Positions 825 to 48,265 of a stretch of DNA of 50,811 nucleotides are shown here, one piece after another (the first letter of the stretch is position 1; each line of letters starts with the position of its first letter). Source of the stretch: a virus. Under the pieces are notes generated by a model, which was given only the letters and a program-made list of their open reading frames with translations, was not told the origin of the DNA and did not search any database. The DNA lies in the IMG/VR virus record IMGVR_UViG_3300009124_000025, positions 1-50,811 of that record. One strand, given 5' to 3'. Both the position numbers and the translations under genes were made by a program.

Positions 825-826
825 GG

Positions 827-1939: not shown

Positions 1940-1968
1940 GGCTGATTGCGCGGCGTAGGTTTCGCGCA

Positions 1969-2211
1969 ATGGACCGATCTGACGAACCGCCGATTGAGGA
2001 GGTAACCCGGTGGATGCTCATGCAACCACAGGGTCGAGCCTTCCTACGTCATCTGGCGGCTTCGACCGGGTTCACCTCAGAGGTGTTCAACAAGCAAACG
2101 TCTGAGATGGCGTTCGCTGCCGGGAAGCGTTCGGTCTTCGTTGATCTGGTTCCGAGGCTGCGTGACGCAGACCCGGTCCAGTTCGCCAAGTTCATTGGAG
2201 AGATTCTGTGA
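1969..2211 (+). CDS. Small head-module protein (80 aa), possibly Bbp19-like
   Basis: Sits just upstream of scaffold/MCP. The block EMAFAAGKRSVFVDLVPRL...PVQFAKFIGE resembles my memory of the Bbp19 family. Unverified. Confidence 0.5.
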   Translation: MDRSDEPPIEEVTRWMLMQPQGRAFLRHLAASTGFTSEVFNKQTSEMAFAAGKRSVFVDLVPRLRDADPVQFAKFIGEIL

Positions 2212-2888: not shown

Positions 2889-2896
2889 TCTGATCC

Positions 2897-3931: not shown

Positions 3932-3946
3932 TAGGGGGACCGACAC

Positions 3947-4477
3947 ATGATTGCTGACAAGAACCTGGAGCTTGCCACTGCGTGGGCTCCGCGGCCCCCG
4001 GTGGGCTCGACGTTTACGCTGGCCACCACGGTGGACCTGAACGGGGTCGCGCTGTCTCGGATGACTGATCCGACTGACGGCGACGCGACGATCAACGAGA
4101 ACGAAAACCTTGCGCGAGACATTTCGCAGGGTGAACCCTTGTTCATCGTGTTCACCGTCAACGCGGTGGGCGGCGCGTCGACTAACTGCGAACTTCGGGT
4201 CGCGGTTTCCGACAACGACGACGGGTCGTCGGGCACCACGATTTGCCGGACCCCCGACTTCAACCCGCAGAGCGGCATTGCTGTTGGAGATCAAATTGCT
4301 CTCCAAGTCAGCAACCCGCTCAAGCTGGCGAAGCAGCGTTACCTCACGGTTCAGATCAAGAACAACGCGGGAGGCACGATGACGAACATCGACCTGCAAG
4401 TTCATCTGGTCCACGGCGACCCGACCGGCCCGCAGGTCTACTACCCGACCGCGTTCATCTCGCCGGACGGCTTCTAG
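3947..4477 (+). CDS. Capsid decoration/cement-like protein (176 aa), Bbp16-like candidate
   Basis: Directly follows the MCP. Blocks DISQGEPLFIVFTVNA and QRYLTVQIKNNAGGTMTNIDLQVHLV resemble the jelly-roll cement protein family of BPP-1-type phages (from memory). Confidence 0.55.
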   Translation: MIADKNLELATAWAPRPPVGSTFTLATTVDLNGVALSRMTDPTDGDATINENENLARDISQGEPLFIVFTVNAVGGASTNCELRVAVSDNDDGSSGTTICRTPDFNPQSGIAVGDQIALQVSNPLKLAKQRYLTVQIKNNAGGTMTNIDLQVHLVHGDPTGPQVYYPTAFISPDGF

Positions 4478-4488
4478 GAGGCATCGTT

Positions 4489-5091
4489 ATGATCCTCGAC
4501 AACGCAGGACTGTTCTCCGAGCAGCAAGCGATTACATCGCTTGCTGCCGGTAGCACGGTCTACTCCGACAACTGGATGGACTTCGGTGTCGAAACCGAAC
4601 GCAACGGACAGACGGGGACGTGGTATCGCGATTGGGCCAACGGCAAGACGCTCTACGTCAACATGCTGGTGACCACGTCGTTTACCACGACGGACAACGG
4701 CAGCCCCGCCGGTGTGACCGGGGGGACCGGGCTGGAGGTCGAACTGTTCGGCTTTCCAACTGGAGGCACTCCAGTCATCAACAACCTGAGCACGACCGTC
4801 GCTCGTTCGACGAGCATCATGGGCGCCATGATCAACCCCGCAGTTGGGTCGATCCCGGACGCTCTGACGGCCGGATCCAAGCTGTCGTTCGCGCTGAGCC
4901 CTCTTGGGGGTTTGACGCACAACACGCTGGTAACGGGTATGCGATACCTGCGAGCGGCCTACAAGGCGGTTGGCGGTTCGGGCGCTATTACGGGCGCCGT
5001 GTCTCTGCAACTTGCAGCGACCCCGGAGACGACCACGTCGCTGGGCAACGTGATCACCAACACCTACCCGGCAACAGTCGACTTGGCCTAA
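4489..5091 (+). CDS. Second decoration/cement-like paralog (200 aa)
   Basis: ATG preceded by AGGAGG (4476-4481). LFSEQQAITSLAAGSTVYSDNWMDFG and MRYLRAAYKAVGGSGAITGAVSLQL parallel the blocks of the preceding gene. The track ORF 4243..5091 has a shadow N-terminus. Confidence 0.55.
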   Translation: MILDNAGLFSEQQAITSLAAGSTVYSDNWMDFGVETERNGQTGTWYRDWANGKTLYVNMLVTTSFTTTDNGSPAGVTGGTGLEVELFGFPTGGTPVINNLSTTVARSTSIMGAMINPAVGSIPDALTAGSKLSFALSPLGGLTHNTLVTGMRYLRAAYKAVGGSGAITGAVSLQLAATPETTTSLGNVITNTYPATVDLA

Positions 5092-5103: not shown

Positions 5104-5130
5104 AAGCGGCGCGCTTCGTGCGCGCCGCTT
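5104..5130 (+). terminator. GC-rich hairpin after the capsid module (AAGCGGCGCGC-ttcgt-GCGCGCCGCTT)
   Basis: Perfect 11-bp inverted repeat with a 5-nt loop, followed by a T-containing tract (CTGCTCTC). Lies in the 47-nt gap before the next gene. Confidence 0.5.
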
Positions 5131-5138
5131 CTGCTCTC

Positions 5139-8111: not shown

Positions 8112-11100
8112 TGGCTGTCGCTAAGCTGCAAACGTCGTTCAACTCCGGCGAGATCAGCCCGGAGTTGTTTGCTCGCCCAGAGCTTCAGTTGCACAAGATG
8201 GGCGCGGCTACCCTGAAGAATTGGGTAGCTAAGACAAGCGGAGCCGCGCAACTCCGGCCCGGGTTTGAGCACGTCGACTCTTTGCCGGGCAAGACGCGCA
8301 TGATCCCGTTCCGCTTAGACGGCAACGACATGGTCATCGCCATGCGCGCGGGCAAGTTCACGTTCTACGAAAACGGACTCCCCGTGTCTGTTGCTGGGGG
8401 CGTCAACGACGTGTTTAAGATCAGCGATCAAGCTAGCCCGGGTTCGATTGACCTAGGAACCAACACGCTAACTTTCGACCGCAGCCACGATTTCCAAGAC
8501 CTAGAGACGGTGGTTGTCGAGTCGTCCGACGTGATGCCGGGCAGCGTGGCCACCGTCTTCGACTACGAAGCGCGCCCGCAGGGTCCTCGCGGTCTGCAAC
8601 TCAAGTATCTAAGCAACGACCCGATTTCTATTACGTCTACGGGTTCAGGTGAGTTGTATGCGTGGAAGAAAGATCAACTGCCACGCGACTACCAAATCCC
8701 GATCCCGCTAGCCGACACCGGGGGTGGTGGCTCCCCTTCCATCTTGGCGGAAGACGCAGATCGCAGCATCGTGCGGCTAACTAATCCACACGGCTTCCGA
8801 AAGGGCGACCAGTTTTACTGGACAAAAGATGCGACCGGTTCGTCGCCCGCAACTCAAAACCCAGGGTTTTCGTTTATCAGCTACGACGACCGAAAGTTTG
8901 AAGTCAGCGCGGTGTCCTTTGACGCGCTTGGCGCATCGTCGGCGTCTACCGCTAACGACTTCGTAGGCGTCCAACCCCGGTGGGGCATTAACATCTACCG
9001 GACGGACACGGCGGGCAACCGACCTTTTGCCAACACGGTTTACGCGACGCGCTGGTATTTGAAGGGGACTGTTCTTTACTTGAGGGCAAGTTACGGAAGC
9101 CCTGATTTTTCCGCAGGCGACTACATCGTCGCGACGCAAGACGTATCTGCGTCCCTTAGCGGACCCACAATTGCAGATGGGTGGGCGCTTAAGACTGACT
9201 CGGAACCGTGGTTGGGGTTAGACAACGACTACGCTGAAGACGACCTGTTCGAGATCACCTATGCGCAAACTGAAAAGAAGATTCGGTTGGCGCACCGTGA
9301 TTACCCGACGTTGGAGTTGTCGCGGTTAGACGACGGAACTTGGACCAGCCAGACACTGTTCAACGAGCAAGTCAATTTTACCGCTTCTGTTTCCGCTACC
9401 CCAGGCGCTCAGATCGGAATCGCGGCAGCGTATGATGTTAGCGGCACGTCTGCCATACGGTTTAGGTTGACTCAAGATGCAGGGCTCGGGCCAGGAGATC
9501 TTCTCTACATCAGCGGTGTCCCCAACCTGACAAACGGGTTTTATGTTTGCGGCCCCGTTGTGAATAACGGGGTCGACATCGTGTCAATTGTCAACTTGAG
9601 CGGAGCCTTGACGGGTCCGTCAAGCAACTCGAACGCAGGGACTATTATTGTCGCGGACTCGACAGCAAAGGCGAATCAACGCTACATCGTCACGGCGGTA
9701 GACGACAAAGGCCAAGAGTTTAACCGGTCGACCATTACCACTTCTGTCTTTAACCTGCTGCAAAACGCAGAAGCGTTCAACACGATTAGTTGGACGGCTC
9801 AAGAAGGGGCTAGCGCCTACCGAATCTACAAAGAAGAAGACGGCATTGAACTGTTTGGCTTTATCGCTGAGACCGGGGCCGTCACGTTTGACGACCGCAA
9901 CATCGAGCCAGACTTTGGTCGATTAGCCCCTGAGCTAGACACAACGCTAGTAACCGACCCGCCCGCCGCGGTCGCATTCTACGACCAACGCGGCGTGTTC
10001 GGAGGAACAAACCGAGACCCGCAAAAGCTGTTGCTGTCTTCGGTGGGCCGAGACTCAGATCTGGTGTCGCGTTTGATCCCGCTAGACGACGACCGGATCT
10101 CGTTGCAGATCGCCAGTCGAGAAGGGCAAACTATTCGGCACATCGTCCCGGTGTCTGAGTTGCTTATTTTCACCGACACGTGCGAGTGGGCGCTGACAAC
10201 TAAGAACACCGACACGCTCACCCCATCTAGCGCCACGATCCGCTTGCAGACAACTGTCGGGTCTAACTACGTTCGGCCGCAGGTCCTGAACAATTCGGTG
10301 CTGTTCTGCTCTAAGAGCGACCACGTGCACCGGATGAGTTACCAAATGCAGGAAAACGGCTTTGGTGGTTTGGACTTGTCGACCAAGGCGGGGCACTTGT
10401 TTGATGACTACGTGTTGACCGATTCGGCCAGTCAAACGTCCAGACTTCCGGTCGCGTGGTATGTCAACAGCGCCGGGTGGCTGCTCGGCTTGACCTACTC
10501 GCAGGAAGAAAAGGTGTCCGGTTGGCACCGACATCACTTGGCGAAAGGCATGAAAGCCACGTCGGTGGCTGTTGCCACGGAAGGGGCCGAAGACCGGTTA
10601 TACATGTCGGCGGAAGACGCAGACGGAAACCACGTCTTGCTGCGCTGGGGCATCGTGAACATCACCGGGGTGATGGACACGGTGCACTTGGACAACGCTC
10701 GACGGACCAAGCGTTCCGAAGAAAGCGCCGCAACGTTGACGATCACCGGGTCTAACGCACCGGGGTCAGACGTTCGCGTCACTGCGTCCGCTCCGGCGTT
10801 CGATCCAGACTGCGTCGGCGAGCAGTTGTTCGTCACCGACTTGGGCCTGATCGGGCGCATCAAGACGCGGACGTCTAGGACCGAAATCGTTGTCACGCTT
10901 ATCGACAAGGGTTCGTTTAAGGCTAGCAGCACCACGTCGACTTCGTGGGGCGTGACGGTATCCCATGAGCGAGTCCCGCATCTGTCGGGTTCGGTTGATG
11001 CGCTTTTGCAGAAGCCGGACGGGACCGTCAAGCTAACCACGGTTGACGTGGTCGACGGCGTGGCCCGACTCCCGTATCCGTGCCAAGCCGTCCACTTGGG

Positions 11101-11407
11101 CCACAAGTTCGACAACGAACTTCGAACGCTTCCCGCATCGCTTCAGATCGAAGCAGCAGGCATCGGTCGGCTTAAGTCGGTCGACCGGGTCGACGTTCAA
11201 CTGTTCGAGACGGCCGGGTTGTCGGTGGGTCCGGACGCGGACACGCAGTCGGCTATTTCGCCAGAGTCTTTAACACTCACGTCTGAACTAAAGACGGAAA
11301 CGGTAGAAGCTACGTGGAGCCCTGACGGGCAAGTGTCTTTTGTTCAGAAGATGGCAGTTCCCGCAACGGTGGCGGGCGTCACGCTCAACGTCAATCTTGG
11401 AGGGTAA
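8111..11407 (+). CDS. Tail tubular protein B / nozzle (T7 gp12-like position), 1098 aa
   Basis: TAATG overlap with the gp11-like gene. N-terminus MAVAKLQTSFNSGEISPELFARPELQLHKMGAATLKNW...LRPG parallels the gp12-type N-terminal pattern. Size and synteny agree. Confidence 0.7.
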   Translation: MAVAKLQTSFNSGEISPELFARPELQLHKMGAATLKNWVAKTSGAAQLRPGFEHVDSLPGKTRMIPFRLDGNDMVIAMRAGKFTFYENGLPVSVAGGVNDVFKISDQASPGSIDLGTNTLTFDRSHDFQDLETVVVESSDVMPGSVATVFDYEARPQGPRGLQLKYLSNDPISITSTGSGELYAWKKDQLPRDYQIPIPLADTGGGGSPSILAEDADRSIVRLTNPHGFRKGDQFYWTKDATGSSPATQNPGFSFISYDDRKFEVSAVSFDALGASSASTANDFVGVQPRWGINIYRTDTAGNRPFANTVYATRWYLKGTVLYLRASYGSPDFSAGDYIVATQDVSASLSGPTIADGWALKTDSEPWLGLDNDYAEDDLFEITYAQTEKKIRLAHRDYPTLELSRLDDGTWTSQTLFNEQVNFTASVSATPGAQIGIAAAYDVSGTSAIRFRLTQDAGLGPGDLLYISGVPNLTNGFYVCGPVVNNGVDIVSIVNLSGALTGPSSNSNAGTIIVADSTAKANQRYIVTAVDDKGQEFNRSTITTSVFNLLQNAEAFNTISWTAQEGASAYRIYKEEDGIELFGFIAETGAVTFDDRNIEPDFGRLAPELDTTLVTDPPAAVAFYDQRGVFGGTNRDPQKLLLSSVGRDSDLVSRLIPLDDDRISLQIASREGQTIRHIVPVSELLIFTDTCEWALTTKNTDTLTPSSATIRLQTTVGSNYVRPQVLNNSVLFCSKSDHVHRMSYQMQENGFGGLDLSTKAGHLFDDYVLTDSASQTSRLPVAWYVNSAGWLLGLTYSQEEKVSGWHRHHLAKGMKATSVAVATEGAEDRLYMSAEDADGNHVLLRWGIVNITGVMDTVHLDNARRTKRSEESAATLTITGSNAPGSDVRVTASAPAFDPDCVGEQLFVTDLGLIGRIKTRTSRTEIVVTLIDKGSFKASSTTSTSWGVTVSHERVPHLSGSVDALLQKPDGTVKLTTVDVVDGVARLPYPCQAVHLGHKFDNELRTLPASLQIEAAGIGRLKSVDRVDVQLFETAGLSVGPDADTQSAISPESLTLTSELKTETVEATWSPDGQVSFVQKMAVPATVAGVTLNVNLGG

Positions 11408-11409: not shown

Positions 11410-12063
11410 ATGGCCACCGGTTACATGTTTGACAAGTCTTTCACCGCGGCGATGGACGCGGCCAAGCAGCGGCAAGCGTTCATCAACAACCTAAGTGATT
11501 TCAGTTTTGCGATGTCGATCGGCGGCGCGGTGTCGTCTGCGATCGGGGCTTACTACCAGTTGGTTAACCAGAAGAACCAACTCAAGTCGCAAGCTTTGTC
11601 GATGGAGTTCGCGAGCCAAACCGCGGAGTTGAACGCCAACCTTGCCGAGCAGCAAGTCGCTCGCATTCGAGAGTCTGCGGAAAACGAAATCGGCCGCAGC
11701 AACATGGAATACGCGCAGCAAAAAGGCGCGGCTCGCGCGTCAGCCGGAGGGCGAGGAGTCGTCGTAGACCAAGGTTCTTCCGCAGAGCAGCAGCGAGCCA
11801 TCGACTTGGTTAAGCACATCGACGCGTTGACCATCACGTTGAACGCGGAAGGCCAGATGTCTGATGTGATGATGGAGGCCGCAAACCAGCGAGCCAGCGC
11901 TGCGCTCAGTCGCGTGTCGGCGAAGAACATCAGCAAGACCGCAAAATCGCTGTCTCCTGAAGGTGCGTTTTTGGCTACTGCGGTCGGCGGCGCGGGCAAG
12001 GTAGCGTCCATGTATTACGACCAGTTCGCGTCTCGCAACCGCAGGTTTGGGGGCATCCTTTAG
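11410..12063 (+). CDS. Internal virion / ejection protein (gp14-position), 217 aa
   Basis: Synteny after the nozzle. Has a hydrophobic segment (FSFAMSIGGAVSSAIGAYY), an A/Q-rich helical body and a GGAGKVASMYY C-terminus. Confidence 0.55.
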   Translation: MATGYMFDKSFTAAMDAAKQRQAFINNLSDFSFAMSIGGAVSSAIGAYYQLVNQKNQLKSQALSMEFASQTAELNANLAEQQVARIRESAENEIGRSNMEYAQQKGAARASAGGRGVVVDQGSSAEQQRAIDLVKHIDALTITLNAEGQMSDVMMEAANQRASAALSRVSAKNISKTAKSLSPEGAFLATAVGGAGKVASMYYDQFASRNRRFGGIL

Positions 12064-14543
12064 TGGTTACACCGCGACAATCGTTGCGCGTTTCCGGCGG
12101 GGCGCGGGCTCAGCAGCAGCGCGGCGTCACCCCGTTCCAAGCGTCTAACGAAGCGTCCCTAGTAGGCGACGCCATGCTGACGGCGGGGGTGCAGGGCTTC
12201 CAGCTATCCAAGGCGATGCAGGAAGACTTGGACCAAGCGAACACAAGGATGGCCATCACGCGGTTGTCTGAGCTTCTCAACACGACCGAAGCGGAGTTTG
12301 ATCAAGTCGGCGGGGCTGACGCTGCTGAGGTCTTTACGAAAACTCAGGCCAAGTTGCAGGAGGGCAGGTCCGAGCTTGAGAAGTCGTTGACGTCAAGTCG
12401 TCAACGTCAAGCGTTTGGCCTCGCCGCTGACGCCCGGATGAACGCTGCGTTGACCCGCATGTCGTCTACCCGGGCGAAAAAACTGAAGGACTACAACATC
12501 GCGGCCACGACCGCGACCGTGCAAGAAGCGATTACGAACCGAGTCAACGCGTTCTTAAAAGGCGACGTCCGCGGTTGGATTGCGCACTCGGCTGAGATGA
12601 CGCAGACCATGGACCATCTCGCTCAGCTAACTCAGATCCCGCCAGAAGCTGCCGCGGTGGCGAAAGAGCAGGCTGAGTCAGAAATCCACGCCAACATCAT
12701 GGACGGCTTGCTCAACCAGGGTAAGACGTCGCGCGCTCGCGGGTTCTTGGAAGAGCACGGAGAGATGATCCAAGACCCGGTTAAGCGCACCGGGTTGGAG
12801 AAACGGTTGCAGGCCGCGGAAGACGACGAGGTCGCAGAGCGGGTGATCGACGACATCCGACGAGAGCATCCGACCAGCATCGTTGATCAGCGTCGAGCGC
12901 TTCGAAGCATGAAGCTGTCGGAGGGTGCCCGAAAGAAAGCGCTCGCCAGTCTTCGCTACATGTTCAGCGAAGACCGCGACGAGCGCGAGCGGGAGCGTGC
13001 TGAAGCGCTAGAAGACGCGGAAAACCTAGTCAAACTTGGGCGCCCGCTCCCCGAATCGTTGTCGTCTCGTCTCCGAGATTTGGGGGTGCTAGAGAAGTTT
13101 CAGGCCGCAAACTTCAGGGCGAACAAGCCGCACCCGCGGGAGACGAACGAAGCAGGCAAGTTGCTGATGCTCAAGTTCATCGCGCAACCGTCCACGATGT
13201 TGGAGTTCGGGACCCCAGAAGCGCTGCTCAACGCGGTTCGATTCTCGATGTCGGACGCAGACTTGAAGCAACTTGCGGGCATGTGGGACCAAGCCGTAAA
13301 CCGGCAACTCAACGCCAACGAAATCGTCAAGCGCTACACAGCGGGCAAAGGATCGAGCGCAGGAACCCGGTCCCCGGGGGTTAGCGACGGCATCGCTAAG
13401 TTTGACGGGCTCAAGGCTGACCGCGCGCAGATGCTGTTAAACCAGCTTCGGCACTCGTATCCGGATTCCTACGGTCAAAATCTGGCTCAACCCAAAGACT
13501 TGACCTCCGAGCTTGCGACGGAGTTCTACACGTTGCTCCCGCAAGTCGACGCTGCGGCTAACCGAATTGCGAAGACAGAACAACGCAACCCGAACGAACA
13601 CGAAATCTACCAGCGAGCGATTGATGAAGTCTTAGCGTTGCGCACTTCTAGCGGCCGACCTTACGCGGGACTTGGCCCGGTCGATCGAGAAGCCGCAGAG
13701 CTAGTTATGCCGGACGGGGGGAGGTTCACCCCAGAAATGATGCTGGCCCCCGGTGAGACCGACCCCGCGCTGGCCAAACGTCGACTAGAAAACGCGTTTG
13801 AACAGATCCGCCTTTCTACGGCGCAAAGCTTGCTGAAGCGACAAGACCCTCTGAAGGAATGGGACACGTTGACGCAGGTAGAACGCGACGCGTATGTGCA
13901 AACCGCGGAAGACTTAGTGACGGACTCGATGGCCTACGAAGTGGTTTACGAAGCCCGAAAGCGACTTAACGAACTGCAAGGCACAGCGCGCGAGACGCTG
14001 GATGAATACGACGTTATCAGCGAAGAACTTGAGCGGGCGTCTTCGTTGGGCATGGACGCTCTGAGCCCTGAGCTTAAAGAACGCTCCGCAGGCATCCGTC
14101 TAGGCGAAGGTTTGTGGTCTGCTTGGACGCAGCAGGAGGAGACGCGTCGGTTCGATCAGATGGGCGCGACAGACGTGGAAGTGTTCGTCGAGACGTGGCC
14201 TCGGTTCTACGAGTTGTATGGTTCCCAACTCGCAGCGGTGGGCGGGGCTGGCCCCGGCGTCGGCGTCAACCAGATGTTTGGGCCAGGGCCGACAAACGCA
14301 AACAACGCTAGCGCTGCGGAGGCGCAAATGCGTAACGCCATGGTCAAGATCTTGTTCGGGAACGCGAACCCGTCTGAGCAACAAGCTATTTCGAACGCGG
14401 CGCGAATTGGTGACCGGCCGCAAGGACCGTCGCAACGGCAATTTGTCGACGCTATGCGTTCTCGGTTTGGCATTGAGGACGAAGTTGGAACTCCAGAGTT
14501 CTACATCCAGTTTGGTGAGATCGCTAAGAGGTTCCGCAGGTGA
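12063..14543 (+). CDS. Internal virion / ejection protein (gp15-position), 826 aa
   Basis: TAGTG overlap with the upstream gene. Long helical, charged sequence. Synteny agrees. No enzymatic motif recognised. Confidence 0.55.
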   Translation: MVTPRQSLRVSGGARAQQQRGVTPFQASNEASLVGDAMLTAGVQGFQLSKAMQEDLDQANTRMAITRLSELLNTTEAEFDQVGGADAAEVFTKTQAKLQEGRSELEKSLTSSRQRQAFGLAADARMNAALTRMSSTRAKKLKDYNIAATTATVQEAITNRVNAFLKGDVRGWIAHSAEMTQTMDHLAQLTQIPPEAAAVAKEQAESEIHANIMDGLLNQGKTSRARGFLEEHGEMIQDPVKRTGLEKRLQAAEDDEVAERVIDDIRREHPTSIVDQRRALRSMKLSEGARKKALASLRYMFSEDRDERERERAEALEDAENLVKLGRPLPESLSSRLRDLGVLEKFQAANFRANKPHPRETNEAGKLLMLKFIAQPSTMLEFGTPEALLNAVRFSMSDADLKQLAGMWDQAVNRQLNANEIVKRYTAGKGSSAGTRSPGVSDGIAKFDGLKADRAQMLLNQLRHSYPDSYGQNLAQPKDLTSELATEFYTLLPQVDAAANRIAKTEQRNPNEHEIYQRAIDEVLALRTSSGRPYAGLGPVDREAAELVMPDGGRFTPEMMLAPGETDPALAKRRLENAFEQIRLSTAQSLLKRQDPLKEWDTLTQVERDAYVQTAEDLVTDSMAYEVVYEARKRLNELQGTARETLDEYDVISEELERASSLGMDALSPELKERSAGIRLGEGLWSAWTQQEETRRFDQMGATDVEVFVETWPRFYELYGSQLAAVGGAGPGVGVNQMFGPGPTNANNASAAEAQMRNAMVKILFGNANPSEQQAISNAARIGDRPQGPSQRQFVDAMRSRFGIEDEVGTPEFYIQFGEIAKRFRR

Positions 14544-17500
14544 CCGGACAAGACATCCCCCCGTCAATCTATGACGAGATCCTGAACCGCCACCACAACG
14601 AACGCAGCCTGCGCAGGGCTGCGAACGTTGCCGCCGGGCTGGCGGACAAGCGAGACCCGAGCGAGATCGGGGAAGCCTTGCAGATGGCGCGCAAGTTCAA
14701 GTCCCCGTTGGTTCCGGGTCTTGAAGCGTTGCACCAAGCCAAGGTGAAAGAAGCCGCGCAGGGGGTGAAGCCGCGCAGCTTCGCCGAGCGCTTCCCGGCT
14801 TTGTCGCGTCGGTTGGAGAACCCGGACATCGACTTCACGTCGATGACCCGCGACGACATGGGCAACCTGACGGAGACGGAGAATTGGTATAGCTGGCTTG
14901 GGCGTTCGTTCGACGGCAGCTTCACCGAGACGATGGCTAAGGGTCTGCGGCTCGCTGGTATCCCTATCCAAGAAGAGTCCAAGATTGACCGAGAGAAGCG
15001 GAGACAGATCGCGCAGATTCGGGGTGAGCGCGACACGGGGGCTGTAGCCTGGGGGCAGGACGCGATCGAAGTCGTCAAGTCTCTCGCCGCGGTTGTCGGC
15101 GGCGGCCTCGTCGGCGGGTTGGTGGGCGGCCCGCCTGGGGCCGCGGTCGGAGCAACGTCGGTTGGTTACGTGCTTAACTCCGGCGACGTCTACGGAGCCT
15201 TGCAAGACGCGGGGTTCACGCCGGAACAGTCAGCAGGCTACGCGCGCGGGTGGGGCGCCGTGATGGCTGGAATCGACGCGGCGTCCGCGGGCCTAGCGTC
15301 AAACGCGTTCAGTAAGACAATTGGCAAGCGTTTGCTCGGCGATTTGCTCAGCAAGAAGCTGACAGTTGAAGCTAAGCAAGAGTTGTTGCTGGCCGGGATC
15401 AAAGAGCACTTGATCGGGTGGAGCACAGAAACGATCACAGAAGTCGTGCAGCAGGGCGCGTCGATCGCGGCCCGGTATCAGGCACACCTCAAATACCGAG
15501 AAGGCGAAGCGTTTGACGTCGACATCAAGGGCGAACTCTTCGACACGTTCGTGCACACAGCCCGCGGCATGGCTGTCGTCTCGGGTGCCGGGGCCACCGT
15601 TCGAGCTATACGAGACCAGCGCCGGGCCGCGAACGCCAAGTTGACCGCGGAAGCGCACCAGCGGATGGAGACGCTGGAAGCCAACAGCAAACTCCGGCAG
15701 CGAGACCCGGAGTCCCGAGAAGAGTTCAACAACGACGCAGCCCCGGACAGCATCAAGACGGCCTACATCCGAGCCGACAAGTTTCTTGAGCAAGTCGAAG
15801 CTGCGGAGAAGAACGACCCGGACTTCAGGGAAAAGCTAGAGAACAGCCATCCTGGCTTGCTGGCGAAAGCGCAGGAAGCTTCGCAATCTGGCGGCAACGT
15901 AGAGGTCCCGGTCGGGCAGTGGTCAACGTTGGCGCTGGGCGACTTCGGCCGGAACTTGATGCCGCACACGGTCTACCACCAAGACGCAGACACGCAGTTC
16001 GAGCGCGGAGAGATCGACAAGATCGGCGCAGGCTACGAGCCTTTGATGGCTGAAGCGGCCAAGCGAGCCGAGACTGACTCCGAGTTCGCCAAGCTGATCG
16101 AAGGGATCTACGACTACTTCTACGAGCGCGGCGGCGTCGACCAACCCAACATTACTCGGGACCAGCGCGCGGCAAACGCGTCGTTGTCTCGGGCGATCAT
16201 CATGTCGCTCGCTAGAGACGAAGGAATTGAACTGGCCGAGTATTGGCAGAAATACGGCCCGAGCATCGCCGGGTCGATGCAGTCGTCTACCGAGGTGTCG
16301 CAGCAAGCTCTGCCCGAGCTAGTAACGTCGATCTCGGCTGAGGAAGAAGCAACTACCGAGAACACAAACCCGACAACCCAGATCGGGAGCGTCACCGTCC
16401 AAGCCGTTCGCAAGAACGTCTACCGATGGCACGAACTCGGGATCTCCGGAACCTTGTCGGTCAACGACAAGGGCGACGTCCAGATCGACACCATCGACGA
16501 CATGGTCGACGTGAAGTCACTTGGCCGAGTTCTACAAGAACTGTCCAAGCAGTTTGACCGGATCGGTGTCGCGGGTCCGTTGGTTGCAGCCGCAAAAGAA
16601 GGGTTGCAGAAGGTTGGCGTTGACCCCGATGCGGCCACGCAAACGTCTGGCGAAGACTTAGACGCGCTGCTCAAGAACTGGGACACCGTCAACAGGAGCC
16701 GACGATCTGATGAATGGTTTGACGGCGCAAATGTAAACGAGGAGTCGCGCTCAGGCTTCCAAGATGCTTTGCAGGAGGGAGGTGACCGACTCCAGTCTCA
16801 CGGCATGAGTAAGGAGTCAACTTTGACCGGGGCTGTTAGGAACCTGCTCAACATGCTTGGGCAGGGTTTGGACCCTGCGCGACGTGGCGGGAAACTAGAC
16901 ACCGCGCCTCTGGTCACAGGAGAGCAGGGGTCTGGCGCAGGGATCGGAACTGCCAGCGGGACATCTTACAAAGACGGCCCGTTCATTCTGGTTGCTCGCG
17001 AAGGACAGGGGCTGTCCGGCAACCTTGATGGGCTGGGGGCTATTCTCGTCAACGAGACTAACGCCGAAATCGTTGAGGCTCTTCGGCAACAGGTGCAGGC
17101 GATCCGGCCCGACGTAGTAGTTGAGTCTTACGCCAATGCTGGGTCAGCGGTTCGTCAAGTAATCCAAGGTCCGTCTGCTCGCTCCGATTCTGATGTTGTC
17201 CGGCAAGACGAGATCGAAGACGAAAGTCAAATCGTCGTCGAATCGACGGACGAGCAGCGTCGCGACCGGGTCTACCAGACGCCGCAATTTAAACAGTGGT
17301 TCAGAGACTCCAAGGTTGTTGACGACGAGGGCAAGCCGCTCATCGTCTACCACGGAACTACCAAGAACTACGGCGGGACGTTTGAGACAGGAACCTTGTC
17401 GGTGGAGAGCGACCTCGGCGCGGGCTTCTACTTTTCTAGCAGCACTTCCGACGTCAACTGGAACTACGCGAACCCGCTGGGTGCAGACGTTCAAAACCGA

Positions 17501-20500
17501 ATTGGTCGTCGTCAAGAACAGCTAATGGATCAAGACGTCGAAGAGTCGGAAGCAGGCGCTATCGCTCTCGAAGAGAACTTGCAGAACAAGGGCCGCATCA
17601 CCCCTGTTCTTTTGTCTATCCAAAACCCTGTCATTCTGGGCGGCGACCAAGCGACACGGTTTACTTACGAGATGGAGGTAGACGAGGACGGCGACCCGAC
17701 CGGAGAAGAGTCTGGAACGCTTCTCGATCTGATCGACGCGCTCTACGAAATTGATCTCGGAATCGGCGACGCAGGCGTGCTGCCCGAAATAGCCGCGCGC
17801 ATCATGCAACTCGCGGACGACGGCAGCGTCTCAGCCAACGACGTCATCGAGTTGCTAAGAAACGAGTTCCAAGACGAGATCGACGAAGACGGTAACCTTA
17901 TAGCCTACGACATACCTCGCCGGGTGTTTGCGGAGATGGGGTTCGATGGGTTCATCGACCACACCGTCCAACAAAAGTTCCCGACGATGGAGATCCCGGA
18001 CGGCACGACGCACTACGTCGCGTTTAAGCCGACGCAGATCAAGTCGGTCAACAACGAGGGCGGGTTCTCAGTTCGCGACCCCGACATCTTGTCGCAGGAC
18101 GAGATCGTTGACGAAGCATCGCCGGAACAGTTCCGCGACTTCGTTATCCAGTCAGAGCAATTCCAACGCTTCTTCGGCGACTCCAAGGTTGTCGACGAAT
18201 CAGGCAAGCCGTTGATTCTCTACCGGGGGCTCCGCTCAGTGAAGGGGCTTAGCCGGGGTGGGGCTACGGAACGAGGCCGCGCAACGATGTCGTTCACCGA
18301 CAACGCGGACGTGGCCGGGGTTTACTCGGGCATTGACAGCAGCGGAGAAGTTCCGCGCGCGAACCGCGGGCTTTTTCAAACCCCGGTCAGCAGTTTGACC
18401 CCGGTGTTCGTCCGCATGGTCAACCCGCTGGACCTTACGAAACTCGGTGCGACCGTCTCGTTGTGGGACGTGATCGAGGGCATGAACTGGAGCTTCGACG
18501 TCGAATACGGAGACCCCAACCAAGACAAACAAATCGGCTACGAAGACGTCGCCAGCGCAATTGAGGGGCTGGACGACATGGCGTTCAACACGAACGCGTT
18601 TTTCCGTCTCCCCAGCAGCGCCCAAATGTATGCCCCCGGAGGCATCAGATCGTTCCAAGAGTTAGGTGACCTGATCCGTGATCTCGGTGCCCAAGAACCC
18701 GAGTCGATTGAATTGTTTTTGATGGAGACGGAGATCGACGCCTTTGTTCTGGGCGACGATGCGGGGTTCGTCTCGCTCATGCAGCAAGCTGGGTTTGACG
18801 GATTAATCCATAGCGACCCGTTTGTTGGAACCGGAATGATGTCGGACGACGCGTCCAACGCTTTGGTAAGGGTCCCGGGGTCATTCGGAGACGACACCAT
18901 CCACACCACGTGGAGACCGTTCTCGACCAATCAGGTCAAGTCGGTAAACAACCAGGGCACGTTCGACCGGAGCGTTGACGACATCCTGCTGCAAGACGAA
19001 GAACCGCCGAAGCCAGACGAGGTCTTGGCTTGGGGCGGTGCTGCCGGAGACCTAGCGCGCAAGAATCAGTTCAAGCGCAGGCGCGACTACAAGATGGCGA
19101 TCCACACGCTCCCCGAGTCGGACGCGGTTCGCGCCATGTCGCCGGAAGAGCGCACCGCGCACATCCAGAAGGTAGGGGTCCGCGATGCCTTGTTCGCGCT
19201 AGAGCACAGCCCGAACGCGGTCGGTTGGTATGACAAGAAGATCCAAGCCGCGGTCAAGACGCTAGCCGTCCTACACCCGGAGATCTTGACCAAGAAGCAG
19301 AAGCGACTCCAGTTCATGTGGGCGCTAGCGGTCACGTCCAACGGACTGAAGGTTGATGACAACTTCAACTTGGCGGGAGAGGTCTTTCAAAGCGCGGGTA
19401 AGCACTTCCCGACCGACGTCGGGCGCGGCGACGCGGCCAACCAAATCAACCTCGGGCTCAAGCTCTACAACACGCTGGTAGACAAGTGGGGTGTAGACAA
19501 GCTCGCCGCGTTCATGCTGACGCCGACGACGCCGAAGCAGTTGCAAATCCTGTTCGAAGCGGAAGGCATCGAGCACGAAATCAGCGGCTCCGAACTAATC
19601 ACCCAAGAAGTCTACGGGGCCTACGTTCTTGGCCCGAAGATCGGCAACGGGTTCTTCATGAACCTGCACGGAGAGTTGAACCAACTGACGATGGACCGGT
19701 GGTTCATGCGGACGTGGGGCCGGTGGACGGGTTCGCTGTTCAAGTTCAACGAGGAGTTGGCAGCGAAGCAGATGTCATCCTTCCGGTCTGCGCTGATGAG
19801 GCTGACCAAGTCGAAGAACTGGAGCGTGATCCGAGACGACGTCAACGCGCTCTACGGCTTCGACATCTTCAACACGCCGCTCGAAGAAGTGGCTCGGCGA
19901 ACCCAGCGGCTAGCGACGAAGAAGGAGACCCGCGACACGTGGTTCTCGATGAGCCCGGAGATGAACGATCTCCGCAAAGCGGGTAACCGAGTAGCAACCG
20001 GCTTGGACGGACAAGTCGAAATCCCGGCAAACGGATCTATTCGAGCAGACATTCGGAAGCACTTGACCAGCATCCTGGCCGAGATCCAAGCGATGCCGGA
20101 ATACGTCAACTTGTCGATGGCCGACTTGCAAGCTGCGCTCTGGTATGCCGAGAAACGGCACTACGAGCAGGCAACCGAAGGCAGCGACACCGTTGACGCT
20201 TACGACGACGACGAAGCTCCGGACTACGAGAACGCCGCCCGAGACTACGTGATGTCGCGAGGCGACTATCGCGGCACAATCGAAGCCGCGGTAGCGGAAC
20301 CAGACATCGCGTTGCGGCTGGCAGACCGCGCGTTCATCGAACCGTCAATCTTGGCCCCAGCCGGTCTGCCAGAATCGCAACAAGCCGAGATGCTCGGAGA
20401 CGCCGCTGCTCGAATCACCGCGCTGAAAGCTGAAGAAGACGTCGAGTTCACGTGGAAGCACGTCCCGGTGTCGAAGAACTACGAGAACCGGTTTTTCCAT

Positions 20501-23500
20501 TTCCACGCAAAAGATCAGCTAAACACGTCAAAGCGCAAATACGAAGAACCCCAAGTCATGGCGCACGCCGTCTACGTGCCGGGGAAGAGCTACCGAAACC
20601 TTTGGTCAAACGTTCCGTCTGCTCAAGAAACCTACCTCGTAGAACTCAAAACGAAGGCCAGGACTTTGATCACTTTCCAGCAAGTGAGCGAAGCCCGCCC
20701 CGCGCCCGACGCGCTGTCTAGCCGCTTGTTTGCATTGTTTCTGGCGAAGCACGTTGACTCGACAGACAATCAGCCGGGCCAGAAAACGTTTGGGGCGTTC
20801 CCGCAAGCCGTGTTCGGCGTGGACGACAACGGGGAACTGTTGGGCACAAACGACAGCCAACCTTACACCCCCGGCGATGACGAGTTTGACTGGACGGTAG
20901 ACTACCAGATCATGCTAGCGGCTCGGCGAGCCGGGGTTCGCTACATGCGTCTCTCAGACAAGCGCGAAATAGACGCAGCCTTGGCCGCGGGCGCGATTCC
21001 TGTCAACTACACGAAAGCCCAAAGGGGGGCTCCTGTCAGCAGCGGTAACACCGCGTCACGGATGGCGGAAGGGAAAGCCGGAGCAGGCTACGACGTCTAC
21101 GGGTTTGTGTTCGGCAAGCCGGGTGTGTCCCCGATCAAGTCTTACGACGACTTGATGACGAACAGTTCGTCGCTGACGGTGAACCCAGATTCGGCCACTC
21201 AGCGACGTCAACTCGACGAGATGGCAGACGGCGCGCAAGTCAAAATGTGGCCGCGTCGCAACCTGATAGCCGTTCACACCATGAACGAAGACAAGCTCCT
21301 GAGCGCGTTCGACGCGGATTTGGACGGCTTGACTGCCCCGAGCATTGCGGTTTCGCAAGCCACAACAGGGCACAGGTGGCGCGGTTCTGTCCAAATCGTG
21401 CTCAAAAACTCGGCCGTGCTCAACGACGGCCAAATCTACGACTCAGACGTTTGGTCGCAGCGTTACAGAGAGCCCGCCGTCGTTACCGATTACGCGATCA
21501 CGGCAGAGACGGTGCGTCTCGTTGCCGAAAGGTTGCTCACTAAACGACACCAAGAGTCGGGGGCTCCGCTTGTTGACATCGAAACAGCGCTAGACATGGC
21601 GGCGTCGATGGCTGACTCGTATTTCGGGAACACGTTGCCGGGTGCTCGCGACTTCTTCGACGCGTCGCAGCAAACGTTGCGCGACATCCTCGCAGGCAAA
21701 CTAGGTGTGCCTCAACTCGCAATGGCTCCAGGCGAAACGACTATTAGGCGAGTAGTCCGACTGTTCGAAGCCGCAGGGATTGGCGAGTTGTTTTTTGGGC
21801 CGTTGACCAATCTGTTTGAGTATGAGTCGGGATCCATGAAGACAGTTGGTCGGCTCATCTACCGCCCGGTGAGCACCACGACAACGATGGCTAACCCGAA
21901 GCCGAGCGAAGTCATTAAAGTGGCGCGGCTCATGAGAACTTTGGCTTCCATACAAGCTGGAGTCAACATTGAGACTCTGATCAACGGGCACACATACCGA
22001 GTCCGTGAAGCTGAGTTCCTGGGTGAAGACCCTCTAAAAGTCGAGCCTGAGCACAACCTGCCGCGGAACACCTCGGCAACGCAAGAAGCTGAAGACGGGA
22101 TCAAGCAAGCAATTCTTGACGAGCTTGAGAAAAACCCAGCGCTGCTTACCACGCTTAAGGAACACCTAGCGTGGATTCGCGAGACTGTCCTGGGGCCTGA
22201 TGGCACCGCAATTGCGGCGCAGGGGCTCGGGTCGACGGCGATGCCTGGAGGCATCGCAATTTCGGTAACAGACCCAACGATTAGCACAGATGCGCGCAAA
22301 GCCGGGGTGTGGTCGAGAGCGCTTCAGCCTTACCTTGAAAACATTAGTCAGCAAGACGGCGAAACTGAGGCGCAATTTACGGTCCGGGCTTTGGCGCAAG
22401 CCCTTCAAGGTATCGCCGAAATAGACAAATCGACCGGGGTCAAACAGGCACTGTTTACTCACGGAGAGGCCAAACAAGTTCAACAAGCCATAGAAGACTT
22501 GGCGGGCCAAAGACGAATACTCAAAGACACAGGAGAGGACGTCACCAGCGACGCACTTCTCCGCATCTTCCAAAACAGTCTTACCGACCCCATGGACGCT
22601 CGGGGTCAAGAATCCGTATTCAGCATTGACTTGCCGCAGCTTCGGACTGCGATGGGTCGACAATTGTCGGCCGACACCATTAACGAAGTCGCTCAGTCTA
22701 GGCGCGCAGTTGTCGTTGACCGCAAAAATCAACAGGTCGCGCACGACCGAACGCGGGTGCTGGAAGGTGAGTTCCTTTCGTCAGGTAAAGGCCCCAAAGC
22801 ATTCGCGGGGGCACCCGGGAAGCCTCTGTTTTACGGCTCGGCTATTTTCAGCTTGATGCTGGACGAACGTTTAGGCGCCAACTACGACGCCGCAATCACG
22901 GTGCTAGACTTGCGTCGAGTTACGGTTGCCCTCTCAAACGAGAACAACCCGACAGACAAAGACAAAACCATCAGACGGTTTCTTGACACGAACACGGTGC
23001 TCAAAACGCGTCTCCAGATGGGGGTTGGGGATAGCGTGGATCGAGTGATTATGGACATCCAACGCTTGTGCGCCGCGCTTAACGTCCTGTCCCCGGACGA
23101 AAACTTGCCGGGGCAAACCCCGGCAAGTCAGGCTAGATTCGCCAAAAACCCTGACCTCACCCCGGAGCAAGCGCAGCTATATGTCGACTTCCTCAACTCG
23201 CTGCGGCGAGCGGGAGAGGAATACTACGAAGCCAAGCCCATCAAGACGGTCACCTGGGACGACATGGGGGTAGTGCTTATCGGGGACTGGCTCGGAGACG
23301 ACGTTAAAAAGAAGCTGGAGGCGGAACTAAAGAAGCGCAAAGTTCGAACCATGCGCCGGACCAACCTCGAAGGTAGCTCGCTGCATGGTGCTTTGCAGAA
23401 GTTGCCCAAGTCTGCGCGACTTGACAAAGACATCTTGTTCCAAACGGAAGAAGGTGAGTTGGAAAGCGGGTCGACGTCGGGCCGCGGTGGCCCCCGAGGC

Positions 23501-26500
23501 GGCTACAGCCGCAAGCTCAACTCCATCTTCCTGAACGAAAGCGCTGACGCATCCACGTTGATGCACGAGATGGCGCACTTCTACTTGGACGAGCTAACCC
23601 GCATCGCGGAAGAGCAAGGCCCGGATTCGGAGGCATACCGCAAACTGCAAACCTTGGTGCAGTGGATGGGCATGCCGTCAGTCGATCACTGGATGGCGCT
23701 AAGCCGGGACCAAAAGCGAACCGGGCACGAGGCGTTCGCGCATTCTTTTGAGCGGTTCCTTTACGACGGGGTGTCGCCGAACACCGCGATGGAGAAGGCG
23801 TTCCGCGGATTCCGCAAGTGGATGATCGCCATCTACCACGACGTCGAGACCCGGCTGAACAAGCAATACCAGAAGACAAGTGGTGGGGAAGACCTGCCCG
23901 CGCTGACTCCGGACGTGCGCGAAGTCTTCGGTGCCATGCTGGGCGTCGAGGCGGAAGCGAACTCGTCGGTCGAGGCTGCGGACTTCGAGTCGTTGTTCCA
24001 GACGGAAGAAGAGTGGGTCAAACTAGGCGGAACTCCGGAGGAGTATCGGCGACTGCAAGAGATGCACCGGGAAGCGGACGAGAAGATGCTCGACGACTTG
24101 ACCCGTGCTCGCTTGCGCGCGATGGCCTACGCGGGCAACTCGCAGGACGCTGAGCGCAGAAAGCTGCAACGCCAATATCGAGAAGCCCGAGCCGCGCTCA
24201 AGCCGGGGATCGAAGCCTCGGTCCGCAACTCGGTGACCGAACGCGCTCGCTCGTGGCTGCGCAACGGCCTGCACCTGGACGAGAACGGCGAAGTCATTTC
24301 GACGATGGGCCGGGTCACGACCAACAAGCTGAACCGGGGGACGGTCAAGGAGATGGTCGACGCGCGAACGTTTAAGCGCCTCGACGAGATGGGCGTGCTC
24401 AACGATGAGGGCGCTGACCCCTCGGTCGTGGCCTCGATGTTCGGGGTCGACTCCGGCGAGACCCTGCTCGACGCGGTCGCCAACGACCCGCCGATGGAGC
24501 AAGCCGTAGAACGCCGTCTGAAGGCCGAAATGCGGCGCAAGCACCCTGAGTTGACCGACCCGAAGTTGATCAAGGAGCAGATCGCTGAGGCCGTCCACAA
24601 CAAGGTCCGGCACCAGATCATCGCGCGGGAGTTGCAATACTTGGCCCGGGAAGACCGGTCGCACCAATTGTTGTGGAAGGCGGCCAAGCAGGTCGCGTTT
24701 AAGCAACTGGCCCTCACCCCGGTGCAGAACATCTTGCCGTCGCGCTACTCCGTCTCGGCCCGCAAAGCGCGCAACGCGGCCCGCCAAGCCCTGAAGGAAG
24801 GCAACCGGGACAAGGCGATGCAGGCCAAGCGGCAAGAGATGCTGGCCGAAGCCTTGGTGGCCGCAGCGACTGAGGTCCGTAAGGAAGTCCAGAAGTTCGA
24901 GAAGCTGGCCGCGGTCGCGCGCAAGTCGGACAAGAAGTTGCGCAAGACGCGCGACATGAACTACGTCGAGGTGATGCGCGCAGCGCTAGCGTTTGTCGAC
25001 GCTGGCGAGAAGGGCGTGTCGCCGCAGCAGGCCCTCAGCAACATCAGGCAATACGCGCCCGAAGTCCTGACGAACGTGCAGAAGCACTTGGAAGGACTGC
25101 AAACCATGATGTCGGAGCTTGGCATGCTCAAGCCGACCGACCGAGTGAAGCGCTACATGAAGCTGCCGCTTGACAAGTTCCGGCTAGTGGCCGGAACCGT
25201 CGAGATGCTGGACGGGGTCAGCAAGGCTTCGCACTCCATCACGCTGGAGGGCAAGAGGGTCAACCGCGAGCAGACCGTGAAGGACGCGTCAGACCAACTC
25301 GACCTGATGTATCAGGACGAGGTCGATCGCGAAGAAAGCGGGTCGCCGAACACATGGGACAACCTTGTCGACCGGGTTCGATCCTACAAGCATGCGCTTA
25401 CTCGTCCGGAGCACTTGTTCCGCGAGATCGGCGGCGTGTTCCCGCAGTTGTTCGCGCGCATGAAGGACGCCGCGCTCAGCTACCGACGCATGGCTCGGGT
25501 CCTCACCGACGAATACGCGAAGGACTTGAAGGGGCTGAACCTGCGCGAAGACCGGCGGAAGATCCGAAGCGAAGAACTTAAGTTCGTCTTCGGCCGCGGC
25601 TCGGTGCCAGCAAAGGTCGAGATCCTCGGGATGCTGCTGCACTTCTACAGCCACGGGGCCGACAGCCAAGGCATCAGCAACCGCGACAAGCTGTTGGCTA
25701 GTGAGGGTTGGACCGAAGACGGGGTGAACAAGTTCGTCAACGCCATGGTCAAGCAGAAGATCTTGACCGCCGAGGACTTCGACTTCATCCGCAAGGTCTA
25801 CGCGCGGAACGAGAAACTGATCCCGCAGATCCAACGCGCGCACTTCAAGCGGCTTGGCTACTACATGGAACTGCTGAAGGTGGAGGAACAAGACACGCCC
25901 TTCGGCCCGGTGAAGGGATACATCCCGGCCAGCCCGGATCGCCGACGCGTCGGCCGAACGATGAAGTTTGACGAAGACAACATCGCGGAGATGCACGGCA
26001 ACATGCCGATGCGCAACGACGGCTTCACCAAGAGCCGCAGCGAAAAGGTCGCGATGAAACTGGACTTCAACCTGGGCGGGTTGACCCGGCACTACGCGCA
26101 AGTCGCCAACTTCGTGCACATGCAACCGGCTTACGCAGACGTGGCCAGCATCCTGCTGCACCCGCAACTGCAAGCCAAGATGGAGGAGAAGTTCGGGCGC
26201 ACGTTCAACAACGCGGTGATCGACTCGTGGCTGAAGGCGGCCACGAACCAGACCACCGAGCCCGCGATGAACATGATCGAGAAGGTTGTCGACGGCATGA
26301 GCCGCAGCGCGAAGACCGCTGTCATGGCCGTCAACATCCCGGTCGCGCTCATGAACCTCACCGGGTTCGGGCCGATCCTGCGGGAAGTCAAGCCGAGCTA
26401 CTTCATGCGCGCGGCGTTCCGTTACATCACCGAGATGCCGACCGTCGTCCGCGAAGTCCGCAAGTTCAAGTCGATGGACGAACGCATCGGCAAGCAGATG

Positions 26501-47121: not shown

Positions 47122-47123
47122 GG

Positions 47124-48236: not shown

Positions 48237-48265
48237 GGCTGATTGCGCGGCGTAGGTTTCGCGCA

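Follow-up and report, generated by a model that had tools for sequence, protein, structure and literature searches.

The window analyzed here is a 50,811-nucleotide stretch of virus DNA (positions 1 to 50,811 of IMG/VR record IMGVR_UViG_3300009124_000025), and the subject of the analysis is a giant open reading frame (ORF) that encodes two tandem ADP-ribosyltransferase (ART) modules. A sequence-only reading of this DNA had quoted peptides from both modules, all of which were found where it had placed them, inside a single ORF of 4,261 amino acids (aa), with Y-R-G at 18221-18229 and E-T-E at 18725-18733. It had also described the modules as homologous to each other, of the ART-PolyVal type and part of a virion-associated protein, and the PF18760 matches, the BLASTP alignment of the two modules (E 1e-8) and the virion gene order bear this out. 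The ORF and the two modules are located as follows.

14540-27325, plus strand: giant ORF of 4,261 aa with a GTG start (ORF list and translation), in the position of a gp16-like internal virion/ejection protein.
17276-18070, plus strand: module 1 (aa 913-1177), a long-insert H-Y-D ART-PolyVal module (PF18760, 61.8 bits, E 1.5e-16).
18161-18967, plus strand: module 2 (aa 1208-1476), an R-S-D ART-PolyVal variant with a long insert (PF18760, 28.5 bits, E 3e-6).

Both modules matched Pfam family PF18760 (ART-PolyVal) and no other ART family in Pfam at E<=1. The gathering score of this family, 31.2 bits, was exceeded by module 1 (61.8 bits) and by the whole protein (69.7 bits). ART-PolyVal domains are the N4-ART/Tox-ART-HYD2-related ARTs of polyvalent proteins and belong to the H-Y-[EDQ] clade, with a site made up of a strand-1 His, a strand-2 Tyr and a strand-5 Asp; they are present in one or many copies per protein (up to 12) and are grouped with protein-modifying ARTs, and the prediction is that they are injected into the host and modify its proteins (Iyer et al. 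2017, PMC5512222). The two modules resemble this family in their opening F-x-x-W-F-x-x-S-K-V-V-D-x-x-G-x-P, their G-[FY]-D-G motif and their closing Q-I-K-S-x-x-N-x-G-x-F, and in belonging to a large multi-domain protein encoded among virion genes. They differ from it in size, the Pfam model having 140 positions and each window module ~265 aa, because strand 3 and the G-F-D-G helix are separated by a ~100-aa helical insert. Neither module had a match in NCBIfam or PADLOC, and a PDB sequence search with either single module returned nothing meaningful.

We examined the published site in modules that carry His in strand 1 (H-type) and in those that carry Arg there (R-type). In 40 short H-type modules the Asp of G-y-D-G was the only conserved acid after strand 3, indicating that it is the third catalytic position of the family. 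Module 1 has the published His-Tyr-Asp ART-PolyVal site, as its alignment with the family showed, and its earlier description as an H-Y-type module agrees with the invariance of H938 and Y964 among its relatives.

17351-17353, plus strand: H938 (module position 26) of Y-H-G-T, invariant in the module-1 family, within predicted strand 24-28 (strand 1).
17429-17431, plus strand: Y964 (module position 52) of G-F-Y-F, invariant in the module-1 family, opening predicted strand 52-54 (strand 2).
17945-17947, plus strand: D1136 (module position 224) of G-F-D-G, invariant in the module-1 family, directly before predicted strand 225-228.

Module 2 matches this site at the Asp only (R1229, S1251 and D1420). 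Since it lacks the His and the Tyr of the triad, we classed it as an ART-PolyVal variant and not as a typical member. Its homology to ART-PolyVal follows from two results: hhalign aligned the R-type profile with short H-type modules at a probability of 99.9% (E 1.7e-33), and of the 32 R-type sequences examined, which include module 2, Pfam ART-PolyVal recognized 31 at E<=0.01, with 4e-14 as the best value. Several R-type modules were missed, or scored under the gathering threshold, in whole-protein Pfam scans.

The two modules aligned with each other over their full length at 24% identity, and the profiles of their families aligned over 236 columns (hhalign probability 99.75%, E 2e-27). In the short H-type hidden Markov model (HMM) and in two hhalign runs, Y-R-G fell on Y-H-G, x-S-F-T on x-Y-F-T and G-F-D-G on G-y-D-G. 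The AlphaFold models gave the same correspondence: R22 and H26 both lie in strand 1, S44 and Y52 both open strand 2, and D213 and D224 both stand directly before the next core strand. The AlphaFold2 models had a mean predicted local distance difference test score of 85.4 and a predicted template modeling score of 0.84 for module 1, and of 87.6 and 0.86 for module 2. A Foldseek search of module 2 against BFVD returned 45 matches at E<=1e-3, and most of the named ones were ART-PolyVal or polyvalent proteins.

An acidic character of the helical insert was noted in both modules; in module 2 the insert covers 18440-18740 (aa ~95-195 of the module). Module 1 has an extra two-helix insert following strand 2 (module aa 66-105). 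EF-hands were considered for the long insert and rejected: searched against PDB, the R-type profile gave only weak calmodulin and designed-helix matches in this insert (E 0.03-0.6), and the D193/D199 motif comes without a canonical loop.

Conservation in the family of module 2 was determined by an exhaustive HMMER search with module 2, which found 499 proteins at E<=1e-3 among representatives of 50%-identity clusters; the exhaustive search was needed, as a word-index homologue search had found nothing for module 2 and five partial matches for module 1. Full-length matches to module 2 numbered 66 among the 150 matches listed (of 499), at 27-44% identity. The representative set includes the giant protein of the window itself (P0001), differing solely at the start residue. 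The counts below are out of 67 sequences, namely 65 full-length matches and both window modules.

18224-18226, plus strand: R1229 (position 22) of Y-R-G, Arg in 63/67, aligned with the H-type catalytic His, within predicted strand 20-25.
18278-18280, plus strand: R1247 (position 40), Arg in 57/67, an Arg kept solely in the R-type clade.
18290-18298, plus strand: S1251-F-T1253 (positions 44-46), Ser in 65/67, Phe in 58/67 and Thr in 52/67, with predicted strand 44-45.
18725-18733, plus strand: E-T-E (E1396 and E1398, positions 189 and 191), with D 21, E 14 and N 7 at position 189 and S 16, T 15 and E 13 at position 191 (of 67).
18737-18757, plus strand: D1400 to D1406 (positions 193 and 199) of D-A-[YF]-x-x-x-D, D193 in 67/67 and D199 in 66/67.
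18797-18817, plus strand: D1420 (position 213) of G-F-D-G, H1424 (217) and D1426 (219), conserved in 67/67, 55/67 and 66/67, respectively.
18914-18916, plus strand: R1459 (position 252) of an R-P-F motif, Arg in 65/67.

Further conserved positions of this family are G23 (67/67), A52 (63/67), Y55 (65/67), P89 (65/67) and D91 (59/67), and the closing K-S-x-x-N-x-G block is conserved as well. D1420 aligns with the Asp of the H-type G-y-D-G and precedes predicted strand 214-221. The invariant D193 stands two residues beyond the E-T-E. A separate alignment of 32 R-type sequences agreed with the 67-row pattern. As far as the alignments go, the R-S-D clade retains the G-[FY]-D-G Asp and has gained invariant residues of its own, R40, D193, D199, H217, D219 and R252.

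We surveyed the site residues in 404 modules from the 150 listed proteins (of 499), aligned to one HMM, and found that the residues of strands 1 and 2 are coupled. These counts are not phylogenetically independent, and most of the R-S modules fall into two related groups.

Modules with His in strand 1: 310 in total; Tyr, Phe, Trp or His in strand 2 in 296; Ser or Thr in 3; Asp kept in 287.
Modules with Arg in strand 1: 74 in total; Tyr, Phe, Trp or His in strand 2 in 14; Ser or Thr in 57; Asp kept in 66.

The two R-S groups are the ~260-aa family of module 2 and a ~195-aa group with the motifs F-R-G-E-H-G, L-S-F-G, D-A-[YF]-x-x-x-D and G-F-D-G-A-I-H. The ~195-aa group shares R22, S44, D193, D199, D213 and H217 with the family of module 2; the D-A-[YF]-x-x-x-D motif thus recurs in this sister group, and it is not conserved in the family of module 1. 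Short modules that combine the Arg with an aromatic residue (R-Y-D, R-F-D or R-W-D) were found sporadically (P0087 aa 1192-1350, P0060 aa 1406-1571, P0089 aa 1254-1409, P0028 aa 740-931 and P0051 aa 997-1192). Their nearest neighbors are H-type modules, indicating that a change of His to Arg alone occurred more than once. Such modules may bridge the two site types as intermediates.

R-type modules were found in several contexts. H-type modules are also carried by 13 of the 68 R-type-bearing proteins, one R-type module sits after a Phage_Mu_F head domain, and R-type domains also occur as stand-alone genes. On a metagenomic contig (Logan SRR33780561, L003:277-7448), eight separate ART-PolyVal genes stand in a row, one of them R-type (P0007). 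A search for immunity partners or enzymes that remove ADP-ribose near stand-alone R-type genes found no macrodomain or ARH on this one contig, two other contigs being too short for the search. All eight proteins of the array have in common a leader at the N-terminus, P-W-x-D...A-x-N-G, and a tail at the C-terminus, S-A-S-L-T-D, which resemble a common targeting or packaging signal and may be one.

These patterns bear on whether module 2 is a functional site or a decayed, catalytically dead H-Y-D copy that is kept as a spacer, scaffold or binding module. Decay would explain why the His and Tyr of the published triad are gone and why the score lies below the Pfam cut-off, and a few R-type members do have A, S or V in place of the Arg at position 22. 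However, the replacing residues are themselves near-invariant (R22 in 63/67, S44 in 65/67), as is a polar set consisting of R40, D91, D193, D199, D213, H217, D219 and R252, and the same residue set recurs in the ~195-aa R-S group and stand-alone R-type genes exist. We regard a dead copy as improbable.

The Arg and Ser of module 2 raise the further possibility that it is a true member of the cholera-toxin/Alt/VIP2 R-S-E group that was acquired separately from module 1. The sequence-only reading had assigned it an R-S-ExE site and a kinship with cholera-toxin/Alt-like enzymes. The Arg, Ser and Thr of that site were upheld by the family counts (63/67, 65/67 and 52/67), but the E-x-E was not, with Glu in 14/67 and 13/67. 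R-S-E ARTs (cholera toxin, C3, VIP2, Alt, ModA and ModB) share with module 2 an Arg after a strand-1 aromatic residue and an S-x-[ST] in strand 2, these two taking the places of the His and Tyr of H-Y-E enzymes, and the best local hhalign alignments placed the Y-R-G of module 2 on L-Y-R-G of ModB and L-W-R-G of ModA. In contrast to these enzymes, the family of module 2 lacks the conserved [QE]-x-E before strand 5; the acid there is an Asp, as in the H-Y-D relatives, and the conserved acids of the family are D193, D199, D213 and D219. The R-S-E families of Pfam (ADPrib_exo_Tox, Enterotoxin_a, Pertussis_S1 and ART) matched neither module at E<=1, and the hhalign probability of the R-type profile was 1.2% against T4 ModB, where the aligned piece is the short Y-R-G region, and 0.4% against ModA. 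These values, set beside the clear homology to H-type ART-PolyVal (E 1.7e-33 and 2e-27), make membership in the R-S-E group scarcely credible, and the proposed kinship did not hold.

The relation of the two modules to each other was investigated by cross-scoring with HMMs built from modules of other proteins, the window modules being excluded. Module 2 scored 224.7 bits with the R-type HMM and 32.5 bits with the long H-type HMM, and module 1 scored 252.0 bits with the long H-type HMM and 46.4 bits with the R-type HMM. Among the top-5 BLAST neighbors of R-type modules, 99.7% were R-type. These results suggest that modules 1 and 2 are members of two old subfamilies that were brought together. 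Judged by these scores and by their alignment, the two modules are paralogous ART-PolyVal domains from two old subfamilies.

The blocks shared by the two modules had earlier been taken as the mark of an internal duplication. The blocks are real, but they are motifs of the whole family. The opening block, F-x-x-[WF]-F-x-D-S-K-V-V-D-x-x-G-K-P-L-I-x-Y, is 68% identical in DNA, with 12 of 24 third codon positions matching, which argues for constraint at the protein level and not for gene conversion or a duplication of recent date. A recent tandem duplication within the gene, followed by fast divergence that included His to Arg and Tyr to Ser, would account for the adjacency of the modules, their similar lengths, the insert at the same place and the rare D-I-L-x-Q-D-E linker after each of them. 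Yet the best full-length R-type matches of module 2 in other proteins reach 35-44% identity, against 24% with module 1, the cross-family HMM scores and the third codon positions point the same way, and P0002 and P0006 likewise have an R-type module beside a long H-type one, in the order opposite to that of the window protein. A recent duplication is thus very improbable, each module being a member of its own old subfamily.

Structural and sequence comparisons with proteins in PDB gave weak matches to the ART superfamily. The short H-type profile matched 13 PDB sequences at E<=10, 11 of which belong to the ART superfamily (exotoxin A, 8; 6edg, named 'Exotoxin'; RNA 2'-phosphotransferase, 2). 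In the alignments for 6edg and one RNA 2'-phosphotransferase, Y-H-G-T fell on Y-H-G-T in both, and G-F-Y fell on G-F-Y in 6edg. The Y-H-G-T and G-F-Y of H-type modules thus lie on the motifs of 6edg itself, in the H-Y-E (ARTD-type) group of diphtheria toxin, exotoxin A and PARP; the third catalytic residue is Glu in H-Y-E enzymes and Asp in ART-PolyVal modules, and all of these matches are weak (E 0.5-7). In Foldseek searches of PDB, tankyrase/PARP domains made up about half of the top 50 matches of module 2 (E 0.6-2.4, TM-score 0.2-0.28) and recurred with module 1; for both modules together E was 0.6-7 and the TM-score <=0.4. The PDB matches fit the placement of the family in the H-Y-[EDQ] clade by earlier work and are not independent proof of it.

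The top PDB Foldseek match of both modules was cyanophage A4 gp28 (9k3a_B, from a cryo-electron microscopy structure of the pre-ejectosome; E 8e-4 and 0.024), whose alpha+beta domain is left unassigned in the A4 structure paper. We do not take this match as a sign of an ART in gp28: Pfam found only an M23 peptidase domain in it, the three module HMMs found nothing, and the Foldseek match probably stems from helical segments.

Full-length homologues of module 1, at 33-34% identity, were found inside large proteins of Myxococcus phage Mx1 (L001:1117-5556) and Tunturiibacter phage Tunturi_5 (L002:1-3915), and they fall into its subfamily of long-insert H-type modules. Both of these proteins are annotated as NUDIX hydrolases, and their neighbors are tail or kinase genes. 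That the closest deposited relatives of module 1 lie in NUDIX-annotated proteins is a hint of ART and Nudix pairing in polyvalent proteins of large phages.

The remainder of the giant protein was examined with Pfam, PHROGs, BLASTP and regular expressions, and the following features were identified.

15173-15967, plus strand: N-terminal chassis segment (aa 212-476), BLASTP match to Jess A gp39 (28% identity, E 1e-12).
17192-17212, plus strand: linker D-V-V-R-Q-D-E (aa 885-891; regular expression), ~20 residues ahead of module 1.
18083-18103, plus strand: linker D-I-L-S-Q-D-E (aa 1182-1188; regular expression), separating modules 1 and 2.
18980-19000, plus strand: linker D-I-L-L-Q-D-E (aa 1481-1487; regular expression), after module 2.
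21254-21457, plus strand: PBECR5-like predicted RNase segment (aa 2239-2306; Pfam PF18814, 32.2 bits against a cut-off of 25, E 1.3e-7).
23480-27187, plus strand: conserved C-terminal part (aa 2981-4216), matching PHROG 9880 (E 2.9e-197) and Jess A gp39 aa 792-1955 (E 2e-59).
23564-23578, plus strand: H-E-M-A-H (HExxH) motif (aa 3009-3013), opening the C-terminal ~1,250 aa.

Polyvalent proteins combine several unrelated effector domains in one large polypeptide, typically including a zincin-like metallopeptidase, and their genes lie among late/virion genes, the product being packaged and delivered with the DNA (Iyer et al. 2017). The giant protein has this make-up, with two ARTs and PBECR5 in 4,261 aa according to Pfam, and its domain matches identify it as a polyvalent protein in which a conserved N- and C-terminal chassis surrounds a variable cargo of ~2,100 aa. 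Modules 1 and 2 are the first two domains of this cargo; the rest consists of the PBECR5-like segment and of sequence that matches no family. The match to PBECR5, a predicted barnase/EndoU/colicin-like RNase, spans profile positions 13-82 of 239 only, and the ~1,500 aa of cargo around it (aa ~1490-2980) gave no family match in Pfam, PHROGs or NCBIfam. The H-E-M-A-H motif may mark the zincin-like metallopeptidase that is typical of polyvalent proteins; no Pfam peptidase model matched this region, so the assignment is drawn from the motif.

The division into chassis and cargo emerged from a comparison with gp39 of Caulobacter phage Jess A (genus Rauchvirus; L006:7213-13332), a protein of 2,039 aa that is annotated as 'lysis protein' and occupies the same genomic position as the giant ORF. 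It aligned by BLASTP with aa 212-476 and aa 2981-4179 of the giant protein. Between these shared parts it contains a single short H-type ART-PolyVal and no R-type module, with a linker-like D-L-L-A-Q-G-E after its ART. The giant protein is twice as long, with ~2,100 aa of additional cargo, and the major capsid proteins of the two phages are 47% identical. That the two proteins share both ends and differ in the middle shows a fixed chassis with exchangeable cargo.

The D-[IV]-[LV]-x-Q-D-E motif occurs in exactly three copies in the 4,261-aa protein, flanking and between the two modules. No similar motif adjoins a module in the 149 other proteins, and a looser pattern gave four matches in 260,000 aa of other polyvalent proteins, none of them beside a module. 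The three linkers may be processing sites, a function suggested by their placement.

The gene setting was determined from PHROG matches. The order of the late genes is T7-like, running from protease and capsid through tail tubular proteins A and B and an internal virion protein to an 826-aa protein and the giant ORF, so that the giant gene is located among head, tail and internal virion genes. Genes for DNA polymerase, exonuclease and primase-helicase lie downstream of it.

2208-2888: protease (PHROG match).
2897-3931: major head protein (PHROG match).
5118-8111 and 8111-11407: two tail tubular proteins, A and B (PHROG matches).
11410-12063: gp14-like internal virion protein (PHROG match).
Between the gp14-like gene and the giant ORF: 826-aa protein, its N-terminus weakly matching an endolysin family (PHROG).

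A comparison of the ends of the window showed that positions 1-4514 and 46298-50811 are identical, with 0 mismatches over 4,514 bases, indicating that the window is a complete circular or circularly permuted phage genome of 46,297 bp plus a wrap-around. The window thus holds the complete 46.3-kb genome of a T7-like podophage. Its capsid protein is <=56% identical to those of deposited phages, the nearest being Limnohabitans phage DC33, spring-water viromes and Caulobacter Rauchvirus phages, and megablast found no nucleotide match to the giant gene among phages. From its homology and its place among the virion genes, the giant protein is probably packaged in the capsid and ejected.

We consider it likely that this polyvalent protein is an ejection protein of a T7-like phage that combines an H-Y-D module 1 with a module 2 of the R-S-D clade, and that the modules ADP-ribosylate host molecules. 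By analogy with T4 Alt, a head-packaged, injected enzyme (PMC5512222), and with the proteins described by Iyer et al., it would be packaged and then ejected, and perhaps cleaved at the D-[IV]-[LV]-x-QDE linkers after ejection. Both modules would draw on host nicotinamide adenine dinucleotide (NAD+) and, early in infection, would transfer ADP-ribose to host molecules. In module 1 the His and Tyr would hold NAD+ as in diphtheria-toxin-type enzymes, in module 2 the Arg and Ser would hold it as in cholera-toxin-type enzymes, and the shared Asp would act as the catalytic acid in both. That the R-type has further invariant Asp, His and Arg residues points to a remodeled pocket or acceptor site, which would give module 2 a different target or acceptor chemistry from module 1. 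Two different host targets for the two modules, as the sequence-only reading had suggested, are plausible.

The modules could instead have the ART fold and another activity, such as NAD+ hydrolysis or phosphorolysis, modification of nucleic acids or small molecules, or Tpt1-like phosphate transfer, the R-type being the likelier candidate. The basic positions of the R-type clade, where R25 is conserved in 51/67 and R/K26 in 60/67 beside R22, R40, H217 and R252, would fit a substrate rich in phosphate, the weak PDB sequence matches include RNA 2'-phosphotransferases, and the module 1 homologues of Mx1 and Tunturi_5 lie in NUDIX-annotated proteins. Nothing speaks directly against such an activity, although Iyer et al. 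group the family with protein-modifying ARTs; it would change the substrate and not the identity of the domain. We judge it rather unlikely, with a real share of the probability.

Several points weigh against ADP-ribosylation of host molecules by an ejected protein. The score of module 2 alone, 28.5 bits, is just under the PF18760 gathering score of 31.2. R1229, S1251, D1420, D1400 and D1406 were placed by alignments and predicted strands and not by pocket geometry. In the PDB Foldseek searches module 2 had no match at E<=1e-3 and the sole match of module 1 at that threshold was a phage ejection protein, and the exotoxin A and Tpt1 matches of the short H-type profile, at E 0.5-1.8, are not statistically significant. 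A close orthologue of the giant protein was not found, so that conservation was assessed at the level of the family. Packaging and ejection are read from gene order and homology only, and a literature search found no biochemical assay of any ART-PolyVal domain.

Protein-modifying ARTs form two great clades, the diphtheria-toxin/PARP-like and the cholera-toxin-like, which are separated by His or Arg and by Tyr or Ser. It is possible, and we put it forward tentatively, that the R-S-D modules hang together as one clade, which originated within the H-Y-D ART-PolyVal family and independently repeated the His-to-Arg and Tyr-to-Ser switch, with the modules that pair Arg and an aromatic residue as apparent intermediates, and that phages deliberately combine H- and R-types, within a single injected protein or a single gene array, so as to act on acceptors of different chemistry. 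That giant polyvalent proteins can carry several ARTs was known already; what appears to be new is the Arg-Ser-Asp clade, together with the coupling of its site residues and its regular association with H-type modules, and the literature searched described H-Y-D sites only.

Injected phage ARTs are believed to act within seconds of the start of infection, taking control of the host or disarming it. To our knowledge, T4 Alt is the only one that has been studied in detail, and the ART-PolyVal family is a source of candidate host-modifying enzymes. As the two site types are mixed in many polyvalent proteins and gene arrays and the Arg-Ser type scores at or below the Pfam cut-off, annotation may under-count such effectors and may merge what are possibly two chemistries. 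The coupling of His with an aromatic residue and of Arg with Ser, together with the sporadic Arg/aromatic forms, offers a handle on how ART active sites are converted. If a switch of this kind did take place, the family would lend itself, as a natural system, to studies of how the switch alters NAD+ binding and the choice of target.

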